Shown here piece after piece: positions 5,964 through 37,245 of a DNA stretch of 64,000 nt. The translations under genes were made by a program, and so were the position numbers. Under the pieces are notes generated by a model. The model was given only the letters and a program-made list of their open reading frames with translations, ran no database searches and was not told the DNA's origin. Position 1 is the stretch's first letter. Each line of letters starts with the position of its first letter. Source of the DNA: Chitinophagales bacterium (GTDB lineage: Bacteria > Bacteroidota > Bacteroidia > Chitinophagales > LD1); contig JBGAHI010000004.1 of the NCBI GenBank assembly GCA_044226285.1, forward strand, positions 154,731 to 218,730, in the 5' to 3' direction.

Positions 5964-6063
5964 CATCAAAGTAGTTCAAAAGATTCCCGTTTTCACGGTC
6001 ATTACGATGAATGCATATTTTGCCAATAATCCGAAATGCCGCGTGCGGATGGAAGTGAAAATC

Positions 6064-6091
6064 CTTTATCCCGCTTCAGAGTGGGATAAAG
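6064..6091 (-). terminator. Possible weak intrinsic terminator downstream of dus
   Basis: A 9-bp stem pairs CTTTATCCC with GGGATAAAG around a 10-nt loop. On the minus strand it is followed by GATTTTCA. The T-run is short, so confidence is low. Confidence 0.3.
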
Positions 6092-6193
6092 ATTGCAACG
6101 AACAGCCGGTAACACGCCCAAAAAAACAAATGGTTCGGCAAGGATAGCGAATTGAGTTTCTTCACTTCTAAAGGCGAGTAGCTAAAGGCTTCT

Positions 6194-15518: not shown

Positions 15519-17531
15519 TTACTCTGTTTTGAGAAACGGTTTCACATATTTATTGGTTGCCGTTTCCACTGCAACAGTATAGGCTCCACTTGGCCATCCG
15601 GAAACAAATATTGCCTTGGTATTAGACGAACCAATGAATACTTTTTCTTCATACACCATTTGTCCAAACATATTAGAAACATGAATTGTGGCTTGTTGAT
15701 TTTGGATGGCCGATAAATCGATGTTTAATTTGTCGGATGAAGGATTTGGATAGATTTTCAACGCATCGTTCGCGGCAATTTCTTTTACCCCTGTTGTTGT
15801 AGCGCTATCCACTCCCCAAGCATATTCAATGGTGGTAGTATCGAAATTAATTTTCGAATAATACACATATTGATTCGGTTGAGCTACAGTATCCAAATAC
15901 CAACGTTCTTGGTATGTTGCTTGGTCTACCTTGGCTTGAAACTGGGTAAATGTGCCATACATAGCCGAGTCACCCACAATAATCACCCAAGTTTGGCCTT
16001 TATCCATATAACATGCGGCAACGTTATTGATGCTGTCTAAACAATGTCTGCGAACAGCCACATACTGATTGGCTTGACGACCCAACAACCACATACTGTC
16101 TTGTTTAACTTCATCGAAATCGGCTGTATTAAAATGCAATGCCACCTCCGGATTTTTAGAAGGAAGTATGGGCGATTTAAACTCAGGGCGATACATGAGT
16201 AAAGCTACATTGTGTTTTTGTCCAACGTAAGGAAGATTATCGTTTAAATTAGAAGCCGACCGTGCATCCCAGTTTTGTTTCACTTGGCCACTAGCCGTGA
16301 ACACCGCAGTAGTGCCTATATTGGCAACACAAGGAAATTGCTGATAGCCTAATTTACCTTTCCAAAAATCTTTAACGGACGAAAGTGTTATGGATTTGTG
16401 TTTGAAAATTACGGCATCTTCATTACAAATCACTGTACTTTTTGATGCAACTGTGAGTTGTTGTGCCAATGACGAAATGGTAGAAGAATCGAACTGCGAA
16501 AACGCTGCAAAAGGAGCGAAATCTACATGCTTCCAAAGATTGGAATCGATGAGCAATTGGCCTGTTGTTCCTGCAACACGTGGATCGAAGTATCCACCAA
16601 AGCTCCATTGGAAAATTGTTCTATCTAAATAGGATTGGCCGCTATTCAACACAAAACTAGTGTCGAGGGTATGGCCAATATGGTATGTGATATCCAGTTC
16701 CGATTTCCATGAATCTATAATTGAATCTACAGGGAGTGAAGATGAGGCTAAAAAGCCCCCAGCATGTGAAGCACCTGTTGGGGCTAACCCGAAACCGGTT
16801 AACAAATAGATAAGATTATTATGATTTTGATCGTACGCATTTTCATACTTTCCGAAGTAGTTTCTTCCGGCTGTTGGAAAGAATACACCTTGATCGTTAG
16901 TGATCATTAATAATTCTTTCAGTAAACGTTGAGATGCAAGTGTAGCTAATGCTTTAATTTCTGTGTCTTGTGCAAAATCAGCAAGGTTCAATAATCCGCT
17001 TAAGCAATATGGGGAATAAACAGAGCTAAAAAATTCGTAAAAACCATAGTTAACTTTGAGACGTAAATAGTGTCGCAAACGGTTGTCGAGATTGGCATCA
17101 ATTGCTTTACCATACTTCTCATGCAAAATCCAATCCGATGACATCCATTGAATCATGTGGTTTTCCGACCAATAACCATGCAATGTATCGCCTTTGGTCA
17201 TCCAAAATGGAATGGAATCCAAAGCCGGCAGAATTAAACTATTGTATTGTCCGGAACTTAAACATAAAATACGCACTAGCTGTACAATGTCGAAGTCAAC
17301 TGTGCCTGTTCTTCTGATATCGCTAACCATTTGGTGCAATGTTGCTGAGTCGACAGGAACGCCCATATAGGCTTGAATGGTAATTGTATGCCGTGAAAAA
17401 TTAGACAACGAATGATTAATGTAATCGGTTCTGCGTTGTTCGTAAACGGGATTATTCGCAAAAGATGAAAACGAAAACATTGAAACGAAGAACAATAAGC
17501 CCAATGAGAGCTGTTGGGTAGACATACGCAT
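15519..17531 (-). CDS. Secreted protein with T9SS C-terminal sorting domain; uncharacterised ENH-motif catalytic-looking domain
   Basis: The likely start is MRMSTQQLSLGLLFFVSMFSFSSFA (signal peptide). The C-terminal ~80 aa (LKIYPNPSSDKLNIDL...YTVAVET...KPFLKTE) fits a Por/T9SS type A tail. The core shares YWSENH...GFYEFFSSVYSPY with the lipoprotein at 28141-29784. Confidence 0.7.
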   Translation of the reverse strand: MRMSTQQLSLGLLFFVSMFSFSSFANNPVYEQRRTDYINHSLSNFSRHTITIQAYMGVPVDSATLHQMVSDIRRTGTVDFDIVQLVRILCLSSGQYNSLILPALDSIPFWMTKGDTLHGYWSENHMIQWMSSDWILHEKYGKAIDANLDNRLRHYLRLKVNYGFYEFFSSVYSPYCLSGLLNLADFAQDTEIKALATLASQRLLKELLMITNDQGVFFPTAGRNYFGKYENAYDQNHNNLIYLLTGFGLAPTGASHAGGFLASSSLPVDSIIDSWKSELDITYHIGHTLDTSFVLNSGQSYLDRTIFQWSFGGYFDPRVAGTTGQLLIDSNLWKHVDFAPFAAFSQFDSSTISSLAQQLTVASKSTVICNEDAVIFKHKSITLSSVKDFWKGKLGYQQFPCVANIGTTAVFTASGQVKQNWDARSASNLNDNLPYVGQKHNVALLMYRPEFKSPILPSKNPEVALHFNTADFDEVKQDSMWLLGRQANQYVAVRRHCLDSINNVAACYMDKGQTWVIIVGDSAMYGTFTQFQAKVDQATYQERWYLDTVAQPNQYVYYSKINFDTTTIEYAWGVDSATTTGVKEIAANDALKIYPNPSSDKLNIDLSAIQNQQATIHVSNMFGQMVYEEKVFIGSSNTKAIFVSGWPSGAYTVAVETATNKYVKPFLKTE

Positions 17532-17677
17532 GATAATGGTTGATTTTGAATTCAATATAAATAATAAAAACAATTGGTTTCTCTTATTAGACGACAAAAT
17601 GGTTAACGTCCATTTGTTTCCAATAAAAATTGTAAGTTCGATTTAACACTTTCATTAACGCAACCACAACCATTGGT

Positions 17678-19873
17678 ATGAAACACAAAATTCTTTTTTG
17701 TATTTGCTCCTTTTTATCGTTGATTGCTTTCGGGCAAAAAGACTTTTCACAGTATGTGAATCCATTTATTGGAACTGGCGGACACGGGCATACTTTCCCT
17801 GGGCCAACGGTTCCATTTGGCATGGTGCAATTGAGTCCGGATACACGATTAAAAGGCTGGGATGGTTGCTCAGGATATCATTACTCCGACAAAGTGATTT
17901 ATGGCTTTTCGCATACCCATTTGAGCGGAACCGGTTGTAGCGACTATGGTGATATCTTGTTGATGCCTACTGTTGGTAAACCAAAATTCGGGCATAAAAA
18001 TTATTCTTCTGCCTTCAAAAAAGAAAATGAAAAATCAAGTGCTGGATACTACTCTGTGTTTTTAGAAAAGCCGAAAGTAAAAGTAGAGCTAACCGCCACA
18101 ACTCGAACAGGTTTGCACAGATATACTTTCCCGAAATCTTCATCCGCCAATATCATTCTTGATCTTACACACCGCGATATGGTGAAGCACGGAGAGCTGA
18201 ATATTGTTGGTAATAATGAAATCAATGGTAAACGCATCAGTACGGCTTGGGCTAATAATCAAATGTTGTTTTATGTCATTCAGTTTTCAAAACCCTTTGT
18301 ACGGTCGGGTATTGTAAAGGCCAATGTGGCGAATGAAAGTTTGAAACATGATACCGGTAGTTTACTGAAAGCCTTTGTGAGCTTTAATACAGAAGAAGGT
18401 GAGGTAATTTATGCACGCGTAGGTATATCGGCTGTGAGTATTGAAAATGCAAGGAAAAATCTTGAACAAGAACAGCCTGATTTCAATTTTGAAAAAGTAA
18501 AAAGCAATGCTGTTTATGCATGGAATAATGAGTTAAATAAAATTGACATTGAATCGACTGACGAAGCATCGAAACAAAAATTTTACACAGCATTGTATCA
18601 TTGTATGATTTCACCTAACATGTATATGGATGTAGATGGAAGTTACCGTGGGCGAGACTTTCAGGTGCATCAAACGCCATCGTTCAATTACTACACAGTG
18701 TTTTCGTTGTGGGATACGTATAGAGCACTACATCCATTGCTAACGCTAATTGATAAAGAACGAACCTCGGATTTCATTAACACGTTTATAAAGCAATATG
18801 AAGAAGGTGGCCGGTTGCCGGTTTGGGAGCTTTCGAGTTGTGAAACTGACTGTATGATAGGTTACCATGCCATTCCTGTAATTGCAGAGGCGTTCATGAA
18901 AGATGTAAAAAACTTCAATCAGGAAAAGGCATACGCGGCCATGAAAAATAGTGCCATGGAAGACCGAAACGGTTTGCGCAGCTATAAAGAAAATGGATAT
19001 ATCAAGTTTATGGGTGAAGGACAGAACGTTTCACGCACTTTAGAATATGCTTATGATGATTGGTGTATAGCGATGGTTGCAAAGAAAATGGGTAAAACAG
19101 AAGATTATAATTACTTCATTAAACGAGCATTGAACTATAAAAATTTGTTTGACCCTTCTACCGGTTTTATGCGACCGAAACAAGATGTATTTATGTCGCC
19201 TTTCGACCCCTACCGCGTAGATCACAATTACACTGAAGGAAATGCTTGGCAATATTCGTTTTATGTACCACAAGACTTGAGTGGACAGATGACCTTATTA
19301 GGAGGAAAAGAAAAGTTAGTTGCGTTTTTAGATTCGTTGTTCACCACGTCATCAAAACTTACCGGACACTCACCACCCGACATTACCGGCATGATTGGTC
19401 AGTATGTACATGGGAACGAACCTAGTCATCAAATTGCCTATGAATATAACTATGCAGGTCAACCATGGAAAACACAAGCCATGACGCGTAGAATAATGAA
19501 TGAAATGTATCATGCAGCACCGGATGGTTTAGCCGGCAACGAAGATTGCGGACAAATGAGTGCTTGGTATGTGATGAGCGCATTAGGCTTTTATGCAGTT
19601 TGCCCGGGTGGTAGCCAATATGCCATTGGTTCTCCGATTTTTTCGACTGCTACCATTCGATTGGAAAACCAAAAGCAGTTCACTGTGAAAACGATTGGCA
19701 GTGGGGCTTATATCCAATCGGCACAATTGAATGGGAAGCCATATAATAAAAGTTATCTGGAATATAGTGATATTAATAGTGGGGGAGTAATCGAATTTAC
19801 GATGGGAAGCGAACCCAATAAAAACTGGGGAAGCGGTGTTTCGGAAGTTCCGGTAACAAAAATTGGGGAATGA
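17678..19873 (+). CDS. GH92 family alpha-mannosidase
   Basis: Signal peptide plus FIGTGGHGHTFPGPTVPFGMVQLSPDT and GNEPSHQIAYEYNYAGQPWKTQ, both hallmark GH92 blocks. Confidence 0.9.
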   Translation: MKHKILFCICSFLSLIAFGQKDFSQYVNPFIGTGGHGHTFPGPTVPFGMVQLSPDTRLKGWDGCSGYHYSDKVIYGFSHTHLSGTGCSDYGDILLMPTVGKPKFGHKNYSSAFKKENEKSSAGYYSVFLEKPKVKVELTATTRTGLHRYTFPKSSSANIILDLTHRDMVKHGELNIVGNNEINGKRISTAWANNQMLFYVIQFSKPFVRSGIVKANVANESLKHDTGSLLKAFVSFNTEEGEVIYARVGISAVSIENARKNLEQEQPDFNFEKVKSNAVYAWNNELNKIDIESTDEASKQKFYTALYHCMISPNMYMDVDGSYRGRDFQVHQTPSFNYYTVFSLWDTYRALHPLLTLIDKERTSDFINTFIKQYEEGGRLPVWELSSCETDCMIGYHAIPVIAEAFMKDVKNFNQEKAYAAMKNSAMEDRNGLRSYKENGYIKFMGEGQNVSRTLEYAYDDWCIAMVAKKMGKTEDYNYFIKRALNYKNLFDPSTGFMRPKQDVFMSPFDPYRVDHNYTEGNAWQYSFYVPQDLSGQMTLLGGKEKLVAFLDSLFTTSSKLTGHSPPDITGMIGQYVHGNEPSHQIAYEYNYAGQPWKTQAMTRRIMNEMYHAAPDGLAGNEDCGQMSAWYVMSALGFYAVCPGGSQYAIGSPIFSTATIRLENQKQFTVKTIGSGAYIQSAQLNGKPYNKSYLEYSDINSGGVIEFTMGSEPNKNWGSGVSEVPVTKIGE

Positions 19874-19977
19874 TAAGCCTCGCCTTTACTTAGTCCTGAA
19901 ACAAGTTCTTGCCTTTTAGTTTTTTAGATAAAAAAGATATATTTAATTTATTATATACATTCAACAGTTTAAATAAT

Positions 19978-20190
19978 ATGAAAAACTTAAAATACACCTT
20001 ATCGGTACTTTTATCGTTTGGCCTTTCTGCTTTTGCAGTTGCACAAGGAACATTATCTTCTACTAGTAGTGGTGGTGGCGGTGCCCCAATCGATGGAGGC
20101 ATCACCCTTTTAGTGGGTGGTATTGCCGGCTATGGAGTGAAAAAACTAAGAGACAATCACAAAAAAGTAACTGCACAAAAAGAAGTTTAA
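19978..20190 (+). CDS. 70-aa secreted mini-protein with a PEP-CTERM-like tail (P-I-D, Gly-rich TM, basic cluster)
   Basis: MKNLKYTLSVLLSFGLSAFAVAQ (signal peptide), GTLSSTSSGGGGA, PID, GGITLLVGGIAGYGV (TM), KKLRDNHKK. It lies immediately upstream of an exosortase-family gene. The track ORF begins earlier at 19909. Confidence 0.55.
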   Translation: MKNLKYTLSVLLSFGLSAFAVAQGTLSSTSSGGGGAPIDGGITLLVGGIAGYGVKKLRDNHKKVTAQKEV

Positions 20191-20222
20191 TTCCTTTTAT
20201 TTTTCGCACAATTTAGTTTCAA

Positions 20223-20762
20223 ATGCCTGCAAGAAAACATCTGTTTTCCATTGAGGAATTGTCGTTTTTTTTAAAGGTGTTTTTTGTTTATGGATGCTGG
20301 AAAGCACTACACGCTTACCTTTGGAGAACCACAGAAAGCATGTATGCATGGCAAGCCCAATTGGAAGGTTATGGTGGGCTTTATGCGACTCTTACTTGTA
20401 CTATTCTAAAGCTATTGGGCTTTCCGGCCTATGCCGTTGGCACAACCATTAACATCACTCCACTACACAGCACCTGGGTTGCAGAACATTGTTTAGCGAT
20501 ACCTGCAATGTTTGTTTTCGGATTTTCGATGTTGTTGTTTAAGGGCAAAGCAAAAGATAAAGCTTGGTTTATTCCATTAGGCATATTCGTTATTTTTCTA
20601 CTTAATCTTTTTCGGTTGGTTTCCCTCTCCATATTGATGACTCAATTATCGGAAACCACTTACCAAGTTTACCATCGTTACGTATTCTTAGTCATTACTT
20701 ATGGTGCTATTTTATGGATGGTGTTTTGGTGGATGGACAGAGTAATGAAAGAGGCTGAATAG
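20223..20762 (+). CDS. Exosortase/archaeosortase family protein (short, XrtF-sized)
   Basis: It is 179 aa and polytopic. Candidate catalytic residues appear in family-typical contexts and order: Cys in AEHCLAIPAM, Arg in LLNLFRLVS and His in VYHRYVF. Subtype was not determined. Confidence 0.6.
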   Translation: MPARKHLFSIEELSFFLKVFFVYGCWKALHAYLWRTTESMYAWQAQLEGYGGLYATLTCTILKLLGFPAYAVGTTINITPLHSTWVAEHCLAIPAMFVFGFSMLLFKGKAKDKAWFIPLGIFVIFLLNLFRLVSLSILMTQLSETTYQVYHRYVFLVITYGAILWMVFWWMDRVMKEAE

Positions 20763-20776
20763 GAGCGCCAGAGCAT

Positions 20777-22594
20777 TTAATAATTTTGGTGTAACGTCAG
20801 ATACTGCTTCATCTTTTTTCGCAATATCTCCACATAATTGACATCCGTTTGATCCAACAAATTGTTTTCCTCGTTTGGATCTTTGCGCACATCAAACAAC
20901 TCTTCTTTTCTACTCACCGTATTAAAGTAATAGATGAAAAGCTTATTGCCATAATGATGTATCATTGCATAATCATTACTTACTGAGTGAAACGTAAATT
21001 CCAGAAACGAATCACGTAGCAATGATGTTCCTTCCCAAGTACTTGGTATCGGCAATCCTAAGCGATCAATAACTGTAGGCGCAATATCAGACTGCTCAGC
21101 AACATCACGTTTATTGTAGTGAACAGAAGTATCTGTATCGTAAATTAAAATTGGAATACGAATTTCTTCAGCATATACATTTTTTACATGTCCATAGGTG
21201 TTCCTCTCCCCTAAAGACTCCCCATGATCGGCAGTAATCACCACAATGCTATTTTCTAAGTAACCTTTTGCTTTTAGTTCCTGAAATATCTTCTCGATAG
21301 TTTGATCGGCAGCATACACTCCATTATCGTAATTATTTCGATATGGAACGGGCTCCCATTCTATAGAAGTGGGTTTCCATTTAATAAATTCTGGATGTTT
21401 TATTCCGGCATAATGTACCGACATTAAATGCAAGTAAAAAAATGCCGATGTGTCTTTATAGTGTTTAATTTTATTCAAACCTTCAAATAGTAAATTATCA
21501 TCGCAAACATATTTTTCAGAATATCTTCCATCGAAATACAAATCAATATCCTTCCCATAAAAATACTGCATATCGTACCAATTGGCATGATCGCCTGAAA
21601 GAATATAATTGACTTGATAGCCCTGATCTTTCAACACTTCTGATAGAGAATAATTCTGATACGCCAAATTATAAGCCGGCTTCGAACGTAGAATACTCAA
21701 TATACCCGGAAACGAAGCAGATGAAGTAGAAAAGGCATAATCTATCTTTTGCAATTTCTTTTCATCGTAGAGTTGTTGTAAGAATGGTGAAGTTTTACGG
21801 GAATAACCGTAAAGGCTCAACTCGTCTGCCCGCAAGGCATCCACTATAATCAGAATAACATTCTTTTTGTTGAATTGTACCTGTTTGGGGTAATTCGCTC
21901 GAACAGCAGCTGGTTCTTTATAGTTAGCAAAATGAAACATGCCCATGTATTGTGTCTCACCAAATATCATTGTTGCAATGGGTTCGTGGGCCCCTTGCAA
22001 GCGCTGTAATGGTGTTGCCCGGATATACATCACAACGAGCGCTACTAAAAAAACAGCAAACAATAAGAGGTCTGTTCTTTTGCTCTCTTTATTGGTTTCA
22101 GTATATATACTTACTGATTTTCGTATATATTCTTTCAGTGCAGCATTGCTGTGTGGCAATAGGGTATAGATAAAGCGGGCCAATACTAGCATAAGTATTA
22201 ATAAGCAAATACCTACAACCCAAGCAACATTTTGATGAATGCCTGCGAGTGCTAAAACAGCATTAAAGCTTTTTAAATGGCTATACAATACTTTAAAAGG
22301 CAAGACTCCCACGCCTTGTTTCTTTCCCATTAGCACTATGCAATAAAAGATACTCAAGAAGAAAACGAAAAACGACCAAAGTAAAGCATAGAGTGTATTT
22401 AAAACAGCTTTAAGTTTGTTGGAAGAAAGATAAGTGGTTGCCAAACCGAGCACCAATAAAACAAACATCCCCGATGAGATTACCATCAAATGATAGATGA
22501 TAATTTTATAGTAGAACCAATACCTGAATTTGTAATAGAGGATAAACAAGAAAGCCAACAAGTAAACAGATATTATAAAGCGTAAAAATCTCAT
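20777..22594 (-). CDS. Membrane-anchored sulfatase-fold transferase (LTA synthase / phosphoethanolamine transferase family)
   Basis: An N-terminal region of about 5 TM segments is followed by an alkaline-phosphatase-superfamily domain with IIVDALRADELSLYGY and ITADHGESLGE. Confidence 0.7.
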   Translation of the reverse strand: MRFLRFIISVYLLAFLFILYYKFRYWFYYKIIIYHLMVISSGMFVLLVLGLATTYLSSNKLKAVLNTLYALLWSFFVFFLSIFYCIVLMGKKQGVGVLPFKVLYSHLKSFNAVLALAGIHQNVAWVVGICLLILMLVLARFIYTLLPHSNAALKEYIRKSVSIYTETNKESKRTDLLLFAVFLVALVVMYIRATPLQRLQGAHEPIATMIFGETQYMGMFHFANYKEPAAVRANYPKQVQFNKKNVILIIVDALRADELSLYGYSRKTSPFLQQLYDEKKLQKIDYAFSTSSASFPGILSILRSKPAYNLAYQNYSLSEVLKDQGYQVNYILSGDHANWYDMQYFYGKDIDLYFDGRYSEKYVCDDNLLFEGLNKIKHYKDTSAFFYLHLMSVHYAGIKHPEFIKWKPTSIEWEPVPYRNNYDNGVYAADQTIEKIFQELKAKGYLENSIVVITADHGESLGERNTYGHVKNVYAEEIRIPILIYDTDTSVHYNKRDVAEQSDIAPTVIDRLGLPIPSTWEGTSLLRDSFLEFTFHSVSNDYAMIHHYGNKLFIYYFNTVSRKEELFDVRKDPNEENNLLDQTDVNYVEILRKKMKQYLTLHQNY

Positions 22595-23754: not shown

Positions 23755-24459
23755 CTATAACTCAAAATTTTTCAAATCGCCTTTGTAACTCGCACCAACG
23801 GGAACCGCAGCATCGTTGATAAGATGAACTTGAATAGGATCAACCGCTTTAACCTTTATGTTATTTACTATAAACGAGCGATGTACTCTAGTAAACATCT
23901 TATTCGGTAAGTCTTCAAGTAATTTTGTAAGTGGACAGTAAATATCAATGTGTGTTTTATCGGCTAAATATATAAACGTGTTATTCCCTTTTGCTTCACA
24001 ATAATGAATATCCTCTAATTTCACTTTTATCACTCGCTTTCCTTGTTTCAGAGAAATAAACCTTTTGTTCTCGGGTGATGGTGTAGACTCATTTGCAGTA
24101 TTTTCTGTAAGATGTAGCTTCTGAATAGCCTTCAAAAAACGCTCAAATGAAACCGGCTTCAACAAATAGTCCAAAACATTAAGCTCAAAAGCTTCAACTG
24201 CATGCTCAGAATAGGCTGTAACGAATATTACTTTTGTATGGCTCGGTATAGTTTTAGCTAAACTTAAACCCGACAATAATGGCATGTTTATGTCTAACAG
24301 CATTAAATCGAAATGAGATTGATTTAATAAACTTAGCGCTTCTACAGCATCTTTTGCATCTACTATAGTTTCAAAAAAAAGAGATTGCTCACACAAGGAG
24401 CGCATTATTTTGCGTTGAATAGGCTCGTCATCTACAATCAATACGCTAAAAGTCTTCAT
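23755..24459 (-). CDS. LytTR-family two-component response regulator
   Basis: REC domain (LIVDDE...DLMLLDINMP) plus a C-terminal LytTR DNA-binding domain (FTRVHRSFIVN). It overlaps the upstream kinase gene by 4 nt. Confidence 0.9.
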   Translation of the reverse strand: MKTFSVLIVDDEPIQRKIMRSLCEQSLFFETIVDAKDAVEALSLLNQSHFDLMLLDINMPLLSGLSLAKTIPSHTKVIFVTAYSEHAVEAFELNVLDYLLKPVSFERFLKAIQKLHLTENTANESTPSPENKRFISLKQGKRVIKVKLEDIHYCEAKGNNTFIYLADKTHIDIYCPLTKLLEDLPNKMFTRVHRSFIVNNIKVKAVDPIQVHLINDAAVPVGASYKGDLKNFEL

Positions 24460-25499
24460 TGCTGTTTCAATTTCATTCTTAAAGAAACCGAATATTTTCC
24501 GTTTTTAGTTTCTGTTAGCAAACTATAATGATCTTCCCCCATTAACGATAATCGGCTTGTTACGTTTTTTAAACCCATACCTTCGTATTTATCGTACACT
24601 ACTCTTTGATTATTCGGATAAGTATTCTCTAAAAAGAATACTAAATCGTTATCTACAACTTCCATATAACCATTAATTTCAATGAGCTGTGAAGCTATTG
24701 TATTGCTATGTTTGAATGCGTTTTCGAACAACACAATTAATACTGACGGCATAACAAAAAGCTGGCTAGGTATATGCTCCGGAAATGAAAAATGGAAGGA
24801 AAGATTTTCGCCATATCTAATTTTCTCTAGTGCTATATAATCTTTCAGGTAATCCACTTCTGTTTTCAATGCAATATAAGAAGCCTCTGAATTGTAAATT
24901 TGATGTCGTAAAATATTCGATAATCGAATCATTAATTCCGGCAATTCATTCGATTTTTCTAATGCTAAACCATAGAAATTATTCAAGGTGTTAAACAGGA
25001 AGTGTGGGTGGATTTGAGAACGCAAAAAATATTCCTTTTGATTCAACAGCTCCTGTTTTTGTGCAATTTCTGATGCGAGAGTTAGATATGCATTTCGTGC
25101 AATCTTTAAAGCAAGTGTAAATGCCGCTAAGAAAATGTAAAAAGGCAAGAAATTTTGAAGCGAAATCGTCCTTCCTTGGTCATTTGAAACATTGTATAGC
25201 AGTGCATTGGCTTGCGTGGCACATAGCAGTATGACTACAAATACTAAAAGTGAAAACAGATATTTTTCCCGAGGAACAAAAAAGCCATATGCAAAATAAA
25301 GGGTGGTATTGATATAGATGAAATAAATAGCCAAAGTGCCAAAATAATTAGCTAAAATATAATGCCAAGAATACCCTGCTCCTACCCAACCCAAACTAAA
25401 TGAAAAAGCTAAAACAGCCCAAAAAAACGCATGTAGAAACATACGCTTTTTCAGCAACTTTATAAGTATTTCATTACGCACTTTTCTTATATTTAGCAA
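24456..25499 (-). CDS. Sensor histidine kinase, LytS/His_kinase (PF06580-type)
   Basis: N-terminal TM helices, a phospho-acceptor block QIHPHFLFNTLNN, and a C-terminal HATPase-like region. Confidence 0.85.
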   Translation of the reverse strand: MLNIRKVRNEILIKLLKKRMFLHAFFWAVLAFSFSLGWVGAGYSWHYILANYFGTLAIYFIYINTTLYFAYGFFVPREKYLFSLLVFVVILLCATQANALLYNVSNDQGRTISLQNFLPFYIFLAAFTLALKIARNAYLTLASEIAQKQELLNQKEYFLRSQIHPHFLFNTLNNFYGLALEKSNELPELMIRLSNILRHQIYNSEASYIALKTEVDYLKDYIALEKIRYGENLSFHFSFPEHIPSQLFVMPSVLIVLFENAFKHSNTIASQLIEINGYMEVVDNDLVFFLENTYPNNQRVVYDKYEGMGLKNVTSRLSLMGEDHYSLLTETKNGKYSVSLRMKLKQQ

Positions 25500-25501
25500 G
25501 T

Positions 25502-26125
25502 TTACTTAATTCTGTAAACGAATCCTAAACTCACATAGGCTTTGTAGGTAGGCAATCCTACATTAAAGAATTTGCTTAACGGATTATCATCGGCAATTCC
25601 TCTATTCGACATTTGGAGCGCAGCCTCTAATCCATACTGTTGCTTTTTGCCCAAAAAACCACCCAACTTATACCTTGTGCCGAAATCAAAGGTGTTAATG
25701 GTATAGTTCCAGTCTAAATCAATTCCCTCTTTTGCGTTTTTTATATTGCCTTTATTATTCAGCATTTGGTAGCCTATGTATGGGGCGAAGCCAACATAAA
25801 ACGAACTTTTCTTAAATGGTACAACCTCTATATTTAAAAGCGCATTGAGTCTAAATTCTGAAGATCTTGCTTTTTGAATGTTATTACTAGGAAACCATTC
25901 CTTCTCAACAATGTAAAAGTTATTAAGTTGAACCGATGGCCCTAACCGAACCCACTTATTACTAAATGGATAATAGTTTGCATTCAATTCATAACCTAAG
26001 TTATAAAACTCAGGAATACAAAAACCCGCTTGTACTGTCCATTTGGGGTTTATTTTTTCAAATGTTTTTACCGGTTTCTGTGCCATTATTAACACAGGAA
26101 AGAATATTAGAATTAGCCTTTTCAT
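25502..26125 (-). CDS. Putative outer-membrane beta-barrel protein
   Basis: Signal peptide MKRLILIFFPVLIMAQ and alternating aromatic/polar beta-strand patterning. It is in an operon with the two-component system. The start was chosen at the internal Met at 26125. Confidence 0.4.
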   Translation of the reverse strand: MKRLILIFFPVLIMAQKPVKTFEKINPKWTVQAGFCIPEFYNLGYELNANYYPFSNKWVRLGPSVQLNNFYIVEKEWFPSNNIQKARSSEFRLNALLNIEVVPFKKSSFYVGFAPYIGYQMLNNKGNIKNAKEGIDLDWNYTINTFDFGTRYKLGGFLGKKQQYGLEAALQMSNRGIADDNPLSKFFNVGLPTYKAYVSLGFVYRIK

Positions 26126-26135
26126 TTCTCTTTTT

Positions 26136-26954
26136 TTAATTGTTAAACACAAATTGAATTCCGTCTCTAAAAGTTGGATAAGGGTCTGTACCGTGTTGCT
26201 CAGGGTACAATGAAAAGCCGACTTTTAGATTTGGATAGTTCCTGTTTTTTAATCGCTTATAAAATTCTTGGTGCATGGCAGGCGAACTACCTACATAAGT
26301 TCCGCTTCCTATAAAAAGCTTTACAGGCAAATCGGTCACTTGGGTAGCTGCTATTTTTTCTTTTTCAAAAATGTAATTGTCTAGCCCAAGTCCTATGCTA
26401 CAGCTAGCTGCTATGCACTTTTTAAATAAGGGATGGGTAGCATTATCTAACAAAGAATAAAGTGTAAATATTCCTCCTAATGAATGTCCAAAAAGAACAC
26501 GATTGGCAGTATCGCATTCGTATTTTCCATCCACTTTTGGCAACAATTCGGTTTTCATAAATTGAAAAAAATTTTCGCCAGCAGCATTAGCATCTACCCC
26601 ATCTCCAGGGTATTGTAAATCTACCGACCTAGCATATACTCCATCGCCCTTTTTATAATCCAGCGACACCATTAAACATTTTGGTATTTTCCCGCTTCCG
26701 CTTAAATCGCTGATGACCTCTCCGGCCATATCTTTCCACCAGAAACCATCTAGCACATATATCACCGGCACAGGTGTAGAAGGGAATTGCTTGTCAGGAT
26801 AAAACACTGTCATAGTATACGTTGTGCCTGTATTGGAAGAAGTAATGTCCCAACTTTCAGTAATACCTTTTGTTGCAAGTTTGTCTTTCTTGCAAGATTG
26901 CAGACCAATGAATAAAAGGAATATACTCGTTATTGCAATCGTATGTTTTTTCAT
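26136..26954 (-). CDS. Lipoprotein alpha/beta-hydrolase (putative esterase)
   Basis: Lipobox LFIGLQSC, nucleophile elbow GHSLGG, esterase-like length. The start was chosen at MKKHTIAI. Confidence 0.65.
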   Translation of the reverse strand: MKKHTIAITSIFLLFIGLQSCKKDKLATKGITESWDITSSNTGTTYTMTVFYPDKQFPSTPVPVIYVLDGFWWKDMAGEVISDLSGSGKIPKCLMVSLDYKKGDGVYARSVDLQYPGDGVDANAAGENFFQFMKTELLPKVDGKYECDTANRVLFGHSLGGIFTLYSLLDNATHPLFKKCIAASCSIGLGLDNYIFEKEKIAATQVTDLPVKLFIGSGTYVGSSPAMHQEFYKRLKNRNYPNLKVGFSLYPEQHGTDPYPTFRDGIQFVFNN

Positions 26955-27134
26955 ATTATCAAGTTTGTTGTACAAAGATAAACAGGGTAATTGTTCTATT
27001 TGAAGCGCATGACAAATCAGCCGATAAACGGGATATAAAGAGTGGTATTCGGGATAAACAACTATTTGAAGTGTATTTGCGCCCTATCAAGCACAACAAA
27101 AGCAATTAAATTGATTAAAGAAAAATACTTTAAT

Positions 27135-37172: not shown

Positions 37173-37245
37173 GGTGCGGTAGCTCAGTCGGTAGAGCAAT
37201 AGACTGAAAATCTATGTGTCGGGGGTTCGATTCCCTCCCACACCA
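37173..37245 (+). tRNA. tRNA-Phe: tRNA-Phe (anticodon GAA)
   Basis: Cloverleaf built by hand: acceptor GGTGCGG/CCACACC with one C-A mismatch, D arm GCTC-AGTCGGT-AGAGC, anticodon arm ATAGA-CTGAAAA-TCTAT, T arm GGGGG-TTCGATT-CCCTC. It aligns column for column with E. coli tRNA-Phe. CCA is not encoded. Confidence 0.9.

Follow-up and report, generated by a model that had tools for sequence, protein, structure and literature searches.

Exosortases are widespread, yet we know of no bacterial exosortase with a defined product or acceptor. The locus described here raises the question of what such an enzyme might act upon when the gene beside it encodes little more than an export signal and a sorting tail. 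We analyzed a stretch of 64,000 nucleotides from a Chitinophagales bacterium (contig JBGAHI010000004.1, positions 154,731 to 218,730; hereafter the 64-kb window, with positions counted from its first letter), in which the gene for a 179-amino acid (aa) protein of the exosortase/archaeosortase family is preceded by an open reading frame (ORF) of 70 aa. A preliminary description, made from the sequence alone, had pointed to both ORFs, and every element that it described was found again. We conclude that the two genes probably constitute a dedicated two-gene C-terminal sorting system of the PID-CTERM/exosortase X (XrtX) type, in a divergent and minimal form carried by uncultured Chitinophagales.

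The gene pair and its family assignment

The smaller protein is named 'hypothetical protein' in GenBank, and gene callers differ on its start (59 vs. 70 aa). We took the ATG at 19978 as the start codon rather than the upstream TTG at 19909, since the equivalent methionine begins the orthologues. The protein opens with a signal peptide made up of an n-region with two lysines (MKNLK), a hydrophobic core and A-V-A at -3/-1, with hydropathy placing the hydrophobic segment at residues 6-22. Signal peptidase I is predicted to cut after A-V-A and so to expose Gln23. A glutamine at +1 fits the Bacteroidetes 'Q-rule', which implies pyroglutamate formation (PMC5837995, PMC10653852), and it recurs in most of the tiny PID family members. 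The Ser/Thr/Gly linker that follows has 14 residues, and the O-glycosylation motif of Bacteroidota (D-S/T-hydrophobic) was not found in its sequence. The tail contains, in order, P37-I38-D39, a Gly-rich hydrophobic helix (G40-V54, GGITLLVGGIAGYGV), the basic cluster KKLRDNHKK (K55-K63) and VTAQKEV (V64-V70). In the NCBIfam collection the protein matched only the PID_CTERM model NF046080 (31.7 bits, cut-off 26), and no match to the PEP-CTERM model TIGR02595 was obtained even at E<=10. Orthologous small ORFs in other contigs carry the precomputed Pfam annotation PF28310 PID_CTERM. By sequence and hydropathy the protein has the parts of the PID-CTERM architecture, namely the signature motif, transmembrane helix, basic cluster and N-terminal signal peptide, and an exosortase-family gene adjoins its own. 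The signal peptide and the tripartite PEP-CTERM-class tail with P-I-D thus stand as first described. The motif, which had been presented as a departure from known signals, is not new: PID-CTERM is an already curated signal family (NF046080, PF28310), for which the enzyme XrtX (NF046081) has been named and an accessory protein (NF046082) is likewise curated, and the name 'exosortase X' is already attached to a Hymenobacter protein in RefSeq. A literature search on PID-CTERM, XrtX and XrtY found no relevant paper; the family is therefore one of database curation without published experiments.

The two genes lie on the same strand with no terminator-like site in 19600-21000, and they are probably co-transcribed. 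A scan for sigma-70 promoters, a consensus unsuited to Bacteroidota, gave sites no commoner than in shuffled sequence.

The 179-aa protein, an 'exosortase/archaeosortase family protein' in GenBank, passes both TIGR04178 (52.6 bits, cut-off 23) and Pfam PF09721 (37.4 bits, cut-off 25.7). A protein-cluster search of a 5.8-billion-sequence collection gave 24 related clusters at E<=1e-3, and when 23 homologues, with identities as low as 32%, were aligned, Cys90, Asn128, Arg131 and His151 did not vary. The candidate catalytic residues are Cys90 in AEHCLAIP (codon 20490-20492), Arg131 in NLFRL (20613-20615) and His151 in VYHRY (20673-20675). These are the Cys, Arg and His that had been singled out in the preliminary description, and they match the Cys/Arg/His triad inferred for the exosortase family (Haft 2023 preprint). 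Hydropathy indicated five hydrophobic segments. A confident AlphaFold2 (AF2) model from the homologue alignment (predicted local distance difference test, pLDDT, 85.6; predicted template modeling score, pTM, 0.77) contains five long helices (residues 10-33, 37-64, 92-105, 110-141 and 144-178), with a small beta-hairpin at 70-85. In this model Cys90 begins helix 92-105, Arg131 lies in the distal third of 110-141 and His151 is near the start of 144-178. The most basic loop, KGKAKDK (107-113), is probably cytoplasmic, and on that assumption hydropathy, the positive-inside rule and the modeled helices would place all three residues on one side, toward the outer face; a motif that adjoins a transmembrane helix would be expected there. 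No solved relative was found by sequence search of the PDB, no structural analogue by a Foldseek comparison of the AF2 model with the PDB, and no further exosortase homologue in the window.

At the subfamily level the enzyme reaches none of the curated cut-offs. The best match is XrtX (NF046081) at 71.5 bits vs. a cut-off of 170, followed by XrtY at 50.3 vs. 160 and XrtF (TIGR04128) at 42.1 vs. 90. XrtX is likewise the best model for 23 of 23 clade members, with the strongest match only at E=1.2e-28. The preliminary description had discussed the enzyme in terms of XrtF, and the pair could then be an XrtF system whose cognate signal has so far gone undescribed. The enzyme is a short Bacteroidota exosortase of about 180 aa, as is XrtF of Flavobacterium johnsoniae, which is encoded with an exosortase-F-associated protein (Fjoh_1448/1449); XrtF is also among the below-threshold matches, and the Joint Genome Institute (JGI) labels some true XrtX proteins 'XrtF'. 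However, XrtF ranks under both XrtX and XrtY. The XrtF-associated membrane protein is not encoded beside the pair, as had been noted before: the flanking genes encode a GH92 enzyme and a sulfatase-family enzyme (TIGR04127 was not run on every ORF of the window). XrtF membership is refuted by the curated cut-offs, and we regard an XrtF system as highly improbable. Judged by its sequence, the enzyme belongs to an unnamed, XrtX-like sister clade. In F. johnsoniae, deletions in the XrtF system abolish surface colonization and biofilm formation (PMC10936215), phenotypes that by analogy suggest that this class of enzyme may act in the envelope or at the surface. For XrtF no substrate is known, whereas a candidate one adjoins the window enzyme.

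Conservation of the pair and selection on the tail

One genome from each of 185,579 species was scanned, which yielded 80 loci, all from Bacteroidota or from bins labelled otherwise, and contigs from an exact protein look-up brought the related loci to 87; the exosortase ORFs in them were picked with a hidden Markov model (HMM) from the homologue alignment. Synteny of the small ORF with the exosortase gene, put forward in the preliminary description as a check, was found in 48 of the 87 loci (cited below by L numbers). In these a tiny PID-tail ORF (64-96 aa) lies directly 5' of the enzyme gene on the same strand, usually at a distance of 0-90 nt, and encodes a signal peptide, 12-35 Gly/Pro/Ser-rich residues and P-[IV]-D-G-G, then a hydrophobic helix followed by a basic cluster. 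Elsewhere in the 87 loci, or roughly 1 Mb, the tail pattern had only about seven matches, so the adjacency is not due to chance. Thirty-one of 33 non-redundant tiny ORFs matched PID_CTERM; Pro37 and Asp39 do not vary across all 33 proteins, and conservation is 90% or more at G40, G41 and L45. In the clade of the window itself the pair is kept in 8 of 9 contexts. The best loci of the species scan, L008 and L009 (92% and 91% identity, respectively), are from Chitinophagales metagenome-assembled genomes (MAGs) and are collinear with the window. A metagenome scan added only the near-identical loci L092-L094 and no contexts at intermediate distance. L092 and L093 are from JGI metagenomes and L094 is from an activated-sludge metagenome, which places the organism in activated sludge.

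Selection on the small gene was examined over the 30 codons from A-P-I-D onward. Between the window and L008 this tail has 10 synonymous differences and 0 non-synonymous ones. Pairs at greater distance have either saturated synonymous sites with a proportion of non-synonymous differences (pN) of 0.08-0.29, or a ratio of non-synonymous to synonymous rates (dN/dS) of 0.05-0.2, and the tail is identical across L008, L094 and L092. The linker ranges from 10 to 16 residues among close relatives, has no conserved sequence, and has gained or lost residues even where the enzymes are 90-92% identical (QGTLSSTSSGGGG, QSSLGSSSGGGG, QSSLSGGGSSTSGGGG). In L092 and L093, whose enzymes are 99% identical to that of the window, six positions of the signal peptide have changed, but none in the mature part or the tail. 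From these sequence comparisons, the constrained part of the small protein is the sorting tail, including the predicted cytoplasmic KK[LI]RDNHKK.

The same data bear on the possibility that the small ORF is a chance reading frame in a G-rich stretch, or that an antisense ORF at 19890-20105 is the real gene, in which case the exosortase would stand alone. The ORF is short and of low complexity, and its annotation and disputed start would be in keeping with such an accident. However, it passes a curated HMM, its position, strand and architecture are kept in the 48 loci across Bacteroidota, it has more than 4,700 homologues, and the excess of synonymous over non-synonymous changes in the plus frame shows that the plus-strand ORF is a real gene. 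For practical purposes the HMM match, the conservation and the synonymous excess refute a chance or antisense ORF, to which we give almost no credence.

The preliminary description had also drawn attention to the small size of the cargo. A phmmer search of 1.84 billion representatives with the window protein gave 39 matches, nearly all of 47-101 aa and aligned to the C-terminus; the long proteins among them aligned only internally, through low-complexity repeats. A profile of the tiny proteins retrieved at least 4,712 proteins, and the best 120 of these are all of 70-103 aa, carry PF28310 and have CWPPPC just before P-I-D. The mature part is indeed only about 14 residues long, but tiny cargo is a rule of the whole family and nothing peculiar to this locus. 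One of the phmmer matches, P0205 (155 aa), contains two complete PID-CTERM units one after the other, and signal peptide, Pro/Gly linker, APID, helix and basic tail are present in both; the ORF represents a tandem duplication that is read through, or else two genes merged by the gene caller.

In the main alternative to a dedicated sorting pair, the small protein would serve the exosortase as a partner (pseudo-substrate, regulator or stable subunit docking its PID-helix in the active site), and the real substrates would be encoded elsewhere. Such a partner would account for a conserved tail, KK[LI]RDNHKK included, next to a low-complexity extracytoplasmic segment whose length varies between genomes related at 90-99%. 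The tiny proteins, at 64-103 aa family-wide, contain no folded domain, and many related exosortases lack an adjoining tail ORF, so that their substrates would be unlinked or absent. On the other hand, the boundary of the helix is marked by the invariant Pro37 and Asp39, as expected of a scissile signature motif; the signal peptide and the Q-rule are as in exported signal peptidase I substrates; no large PID-tail proteins occur among the detectable relatives of the window variant; and a pattern search found no second PID-like tail in the window. We consider a non-substrate partner unlikely, while giving it more weight than either of the alternatives discussed above.

Several further observations count against a dedicated sorting pair. 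The enzyme falls below the curated XrtX cut-off (71.5 vs. 170 bits), an HMM search of the window gave no XrtX-associated membrane protein, and we found no experimental evidence in the literature for any PID-CTERM or XrtX system. Among the 87 related enzymes, 39 have no adjoining tail-bearing ORF, and within 1.5 kb of these neither another tail-bearing small ORF nor a degenerate P-x-D-G-G was found; one member of the window's clade, L091, lacks a tail ORF in the 217 nt visible upstream. Finally, a cargo without conserved sequence, together with a KK[LI]RDNHKK cluster more conserved than a stop-transfer signal needs to be, fits a non-cargo role equally well. In a dedicated one-to-one sorting system, enzyme and target are encoded by consecutive genes (Haft 2023 preprint). 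Paralogous exosortase pairs occur in single MAGs (L010 and L027 in SZAS-58, L023 and L025 in STL-BAC30, L013 and L047 in CAYQRR01), and in SZAS-58 the two exosortases each have their own, different tiny PID-tail ORF. The adjacency and the two different pairs of SZAS-58 match this one-to-one signature, and we favor a dedicated enzyme-substrate pair as the most economical account.

Superclades, accessory genes and the surrounding window

A neighbor-joining tree of 85 enzymes separated two superclades, A and B. Superclade B contains the true XrtX enzymes (241 bits vs. NF046081 for L042, from Hymenobacter telluris, and 182 bits for L054), with the active-site motif G-[DE]-P-C-N-G and targets of the CWPPPC type. 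Its loci almost always encode the ~150-aa 'XrtX-associated membrane protein' (NF046082) 3' of the enzyme; an HMM built from 24 enzyme neighbors matched it in 32 loci. At true XrtX loci a Wzc-like tyrosine autokinase is often encoded divergently upstream (20 loci; e.g. L054:2981-5401, minus strand) and glyA often lies downstream (22 loci); L056:2148-3422 (plus strand) is from a further locus with kinase/glyA flanks. These flanking genes hint at a link of XrtX to exopolysaccharide loci, as is the case for XrtA.

Superclade A, to which the window enzyme belongs, has the EHCLAIP motif, scores of 67-94 bits vs. XrtX and targets without cysteine. A polytopic membrane protein of ~290 aa that matches no Pfam or NCBIfam model usually flanks the enzyme (17 loci). 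Its gene lies 3' of the enzyme gene or else separates that gene from the tiny PID ORF, and the protein is apparently an accessory, not yet curated, that corresponds to the XrtX-associated protein. The clades of the enzyme co-partition with the types of tail, CWPPPC-PIDGG tails accompanying true XrtX and Cys-free Gly/Ser/Pro linkers accompanying the EHCLAIP clade. The window enzyme falls in a long-branched subclade of A, together with L008/L009, L001-L003, L010, L088, L089 and L092-L094. The ~290-aa partner is still present in L090, whose enzyme is 52% identical to that of the window, and is gone at 64% identity and above. Neither the XrtX-associated membrane protein nor the ~290-aa partner had an HMM match anywhere in the window; the ~290-aa HMM is slightly contaminated by an unrelated neighbor of ~300 aa, which does not affect this negative result. 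The N-terminal membrane domain of the neighboring sulfatase-family protein was considered as a fused form of the ~290-aa partner and rejected, having no HMM match. The window subclade is a minimal version of superclade A.

Compared with the curated PID-CTERM/XrtX systems, the window pair has the same P-I-D-G-G, helix and basic tail scoring over the cut-off, a substrate of ~70 aa encoded 5' of an exosortase of ~180 aa, the Cys/Arg/His residues, and a host in Bacteroidota. It is a variant in that a bona fide PID-CTERM tail is coupled to an enzyme outside the XrtX definition, in a separate superclade with EHCLAIP in place of G-[DE]-P-C-N-G. Its Ser/Gly-rich linker lacks the CWPPPC motif present in 120 of the 120 best family matches, and its conserved neighbor is an EptA-like enzyme instead of the XrtX-associated membrane protein. 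The nearest relatives of the enzyme are those of the other superclade A pairs (32-52% identity), which share its Cys-free Gly/Pro/Ser linkers but keep the ~290-aa membrane partner, whereas no such gene lies within 64 kb in the window subclade (at least 64% identity). PEP-CTERM/XrtA (EpsH) systems have an enzyme of the same superfamily (PF09721) and a tripartite tail with the motif abutting the helix. Unlike the window pair, they are one-to-many systems that lie in exopolysaccharide loci, in Proteobacteria as well as other phyla, and process sizeable cargo proteins by the tens, and XrtA, with 8 transmembrane segments, is much longer than the window enzyme.

In loci of both superclades, genes for homologous large proteins (~950 to more than 1,800 aa) end just 5' of the tiny PID ORF and share its strand. 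Where tested, the proteins carry C-terminal sorting domains for type IX secretion (T9SS), in L015 only below the curated cut-off. No homologue of these proteins was found in the window, and the T9SS protein encoded 2.4 kb upstream of the pair does not cluster with them.

The gene convergent to the exosortase gene encodes a 605-aa membrane enzyme that scores 144.7 bits against PF00884 (Sulfatase), with all NCBIfam matches far below their cut-offs. Its catalytic N-lobe aligned best with Neisseria meningitidis EptA (4kav/5fgn; E about 2e-12), and Asp252, Ser291 and Asp456-His457, which are kept in the orthologues, align with EptA Glu240, Thr280 and Asp452-His453. Within 5 kb on either side, the only genes common to the window, L001, L088 and L089 are the tiny ORF, the exosortase gene and the convergent gene for a protein of 605-608 aa; the outer flanks are otherwise unrelated. 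A functional link between the EptA-like enzyme and the pair is hypothetical, the evidence being synteny within a narrow clade.

The other features of the window, along with coordinates of neighboring proteins in related loci, are listed in Table 1. The four minus-strand genes that begin with the LytTR regulator have no counterpart in the otherwise collinear L008 and L009, and the segment looks like a two-component module inserted or deleted between close relatives.

Table 1. Features of the 64-kb window and neighboring proteins in related loci
Feature	Location	Strand	Basis or remark
Gene for 70-aa PID-CTERM preprotein, predicted dedicated substrate	19978-20190	+	ORF reading (stop codon included), NF046080 match
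Signal peptide, M1-A22, MKNLKYTLSVLLSFGLSAFAVA	19978-20043	+	Sequence reading and hydropathy
Linker, the whole 'cargo', Q23-A36, QGTLSSTSSGGGGA	20044-20085	+	Sequence reading
PID-CTERM tail through stop codon	20086-20190	+	NF046080 match, residues 37-60 of 70
Intergenic gap, 32 nt	20191-20222	+	Between small ORF and exosortase gene
179-aa exosortase-family intramembrane cysteine protease/transpeptidase (predicted), XrtX-like, unnamed clade	20223-20762	+	TIGR04178, PF09721
605-aa membrane enzyme, alkaline-phosphatase/sulfatase superfamily, EptA-like architecture	20777-22594	-	PF00884
GH92 enzyme	17678-19873		Upstream neighbor
692-aa protein with T9SS Por_Secre_tail domain	15519-17597	-	
LytTR response regulator, His_kinase-domain protein, 216-aa protein of no known family, esterase	23755-26975	-	
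Flavo-1 RNA	6033-6116	+	57 bits, Rfam gathering threshold
tRNA	37173-37245	+	Rfam gathering threshold
Large ORF, 1,840 aa	37517-43039	-	
Large ORF, 1,270 aa	44704-48516	-	
~290-aa polytopic protein, superclade A loci	L013:3737-4603; L016:5097-5963; L004:5150-6001; L007:6643-7506; L090:1406-1849		And 12 further loci
Large proteins 5' of tiny PID ORF	L015:2824-5679; L069:2554-5616; L013:1-2844		And 14 further loci

A possible sorting route and its acceptor

For the dedicated pair we infer a course of export, cleavage, transpeptidation and transfer to an acceptor as follows. The 70-aa preprotein would be exported by Sec, and signal peptidase I would cut after A-V-A, leaving Gln23 as a new N-terminus that is probably cyclized to pyroglutamate as in other Bacteroidota. 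The short product would then be held in the inner membrane by its Gly-rich helix, with KKLRDNHKK in the cytoplasm. On the outer side of this membrane the adjoining exosortase would recognize P-I-D at its junction with the helix, and Cys90, helped by Arg131 and His151, would attack at or next to P-I-D. Helix and basic tail would be freed and an acyl-enzyme formed, to be resolved by water, which would release the peptide, or more likely, by analogy with archaeosortase A (ArtA) and rhombosortase, by an amine of an envelope acceptor. What remains in the end would be a peptide rich in Ser and Gly, about 14-17 residues long, anchored or released.

In the model proposed for ArtA, the enzyme of the PGF-CTERM system, the thioester is attacked by the amine of a lipid-bound ethanolamine, and in Methanosarcina artA adjoins genes for ethanolamine-lipid enzymes (PMC7157517). 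ArtA is homologous to the window enzyme, and the placing of a sortase gene beside these genes (pssA/pssD) parallels that of the EptA-like neighbor (PMC7157517), whose presence is, by this analogy, suggestive. The two systems differ in that ArtA is archaeal, with a large S-layer glycoprotein and many other proteins as cargo, and in that its neighbors make a lipid headgroup, whereas enzymes of the EptA type transfer phosphoethanolamine; in the window, moreover, the link is a syntenic one. A more speculative extension, which we think unlikely, is that the PID preprotein serves as a peptide donor and not as a carrier of cargo. The enzyme would ligate a pyroglutamate-capped Ser/Gly peptide of ~15 residues, through its new C-terminus, to an amine-bearing envelope acceptor, and the EptA-like enzyme would either make that acceptor (e.g. 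phosphoethanolamine on a lipid or glycan) or phospho-modify the Ser-rich peptide.

The pair is less of a surprise than it might have been, since its class is already recognized and tiny substrates are the norm in it. Even so, a single adjoining substrate with a mature part of about 14 residues and an enzyme of 179 aa come close to the simplest possible model for exosortase chemistry. Bacteroidota abound in pairs with tiny substrates (more than 4,700 proteins), and the curated models cover one branch of them, XrtX. The second superclade of enzymes is unnamed and has a putative accessory of its own, of ~290 aa. The small proteins are now annotated as hypothetical. The synteny with the EptA-like gene provides a concrete and testable hypothesis for the acceptor. 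If the small protein is a peptide donor of this kind, the system would represent an undescribed class of peptide-decorated envelope molecule in Bacteroidota, and a bacterial exosortase would for the first time have its acceptor chemistry defined.

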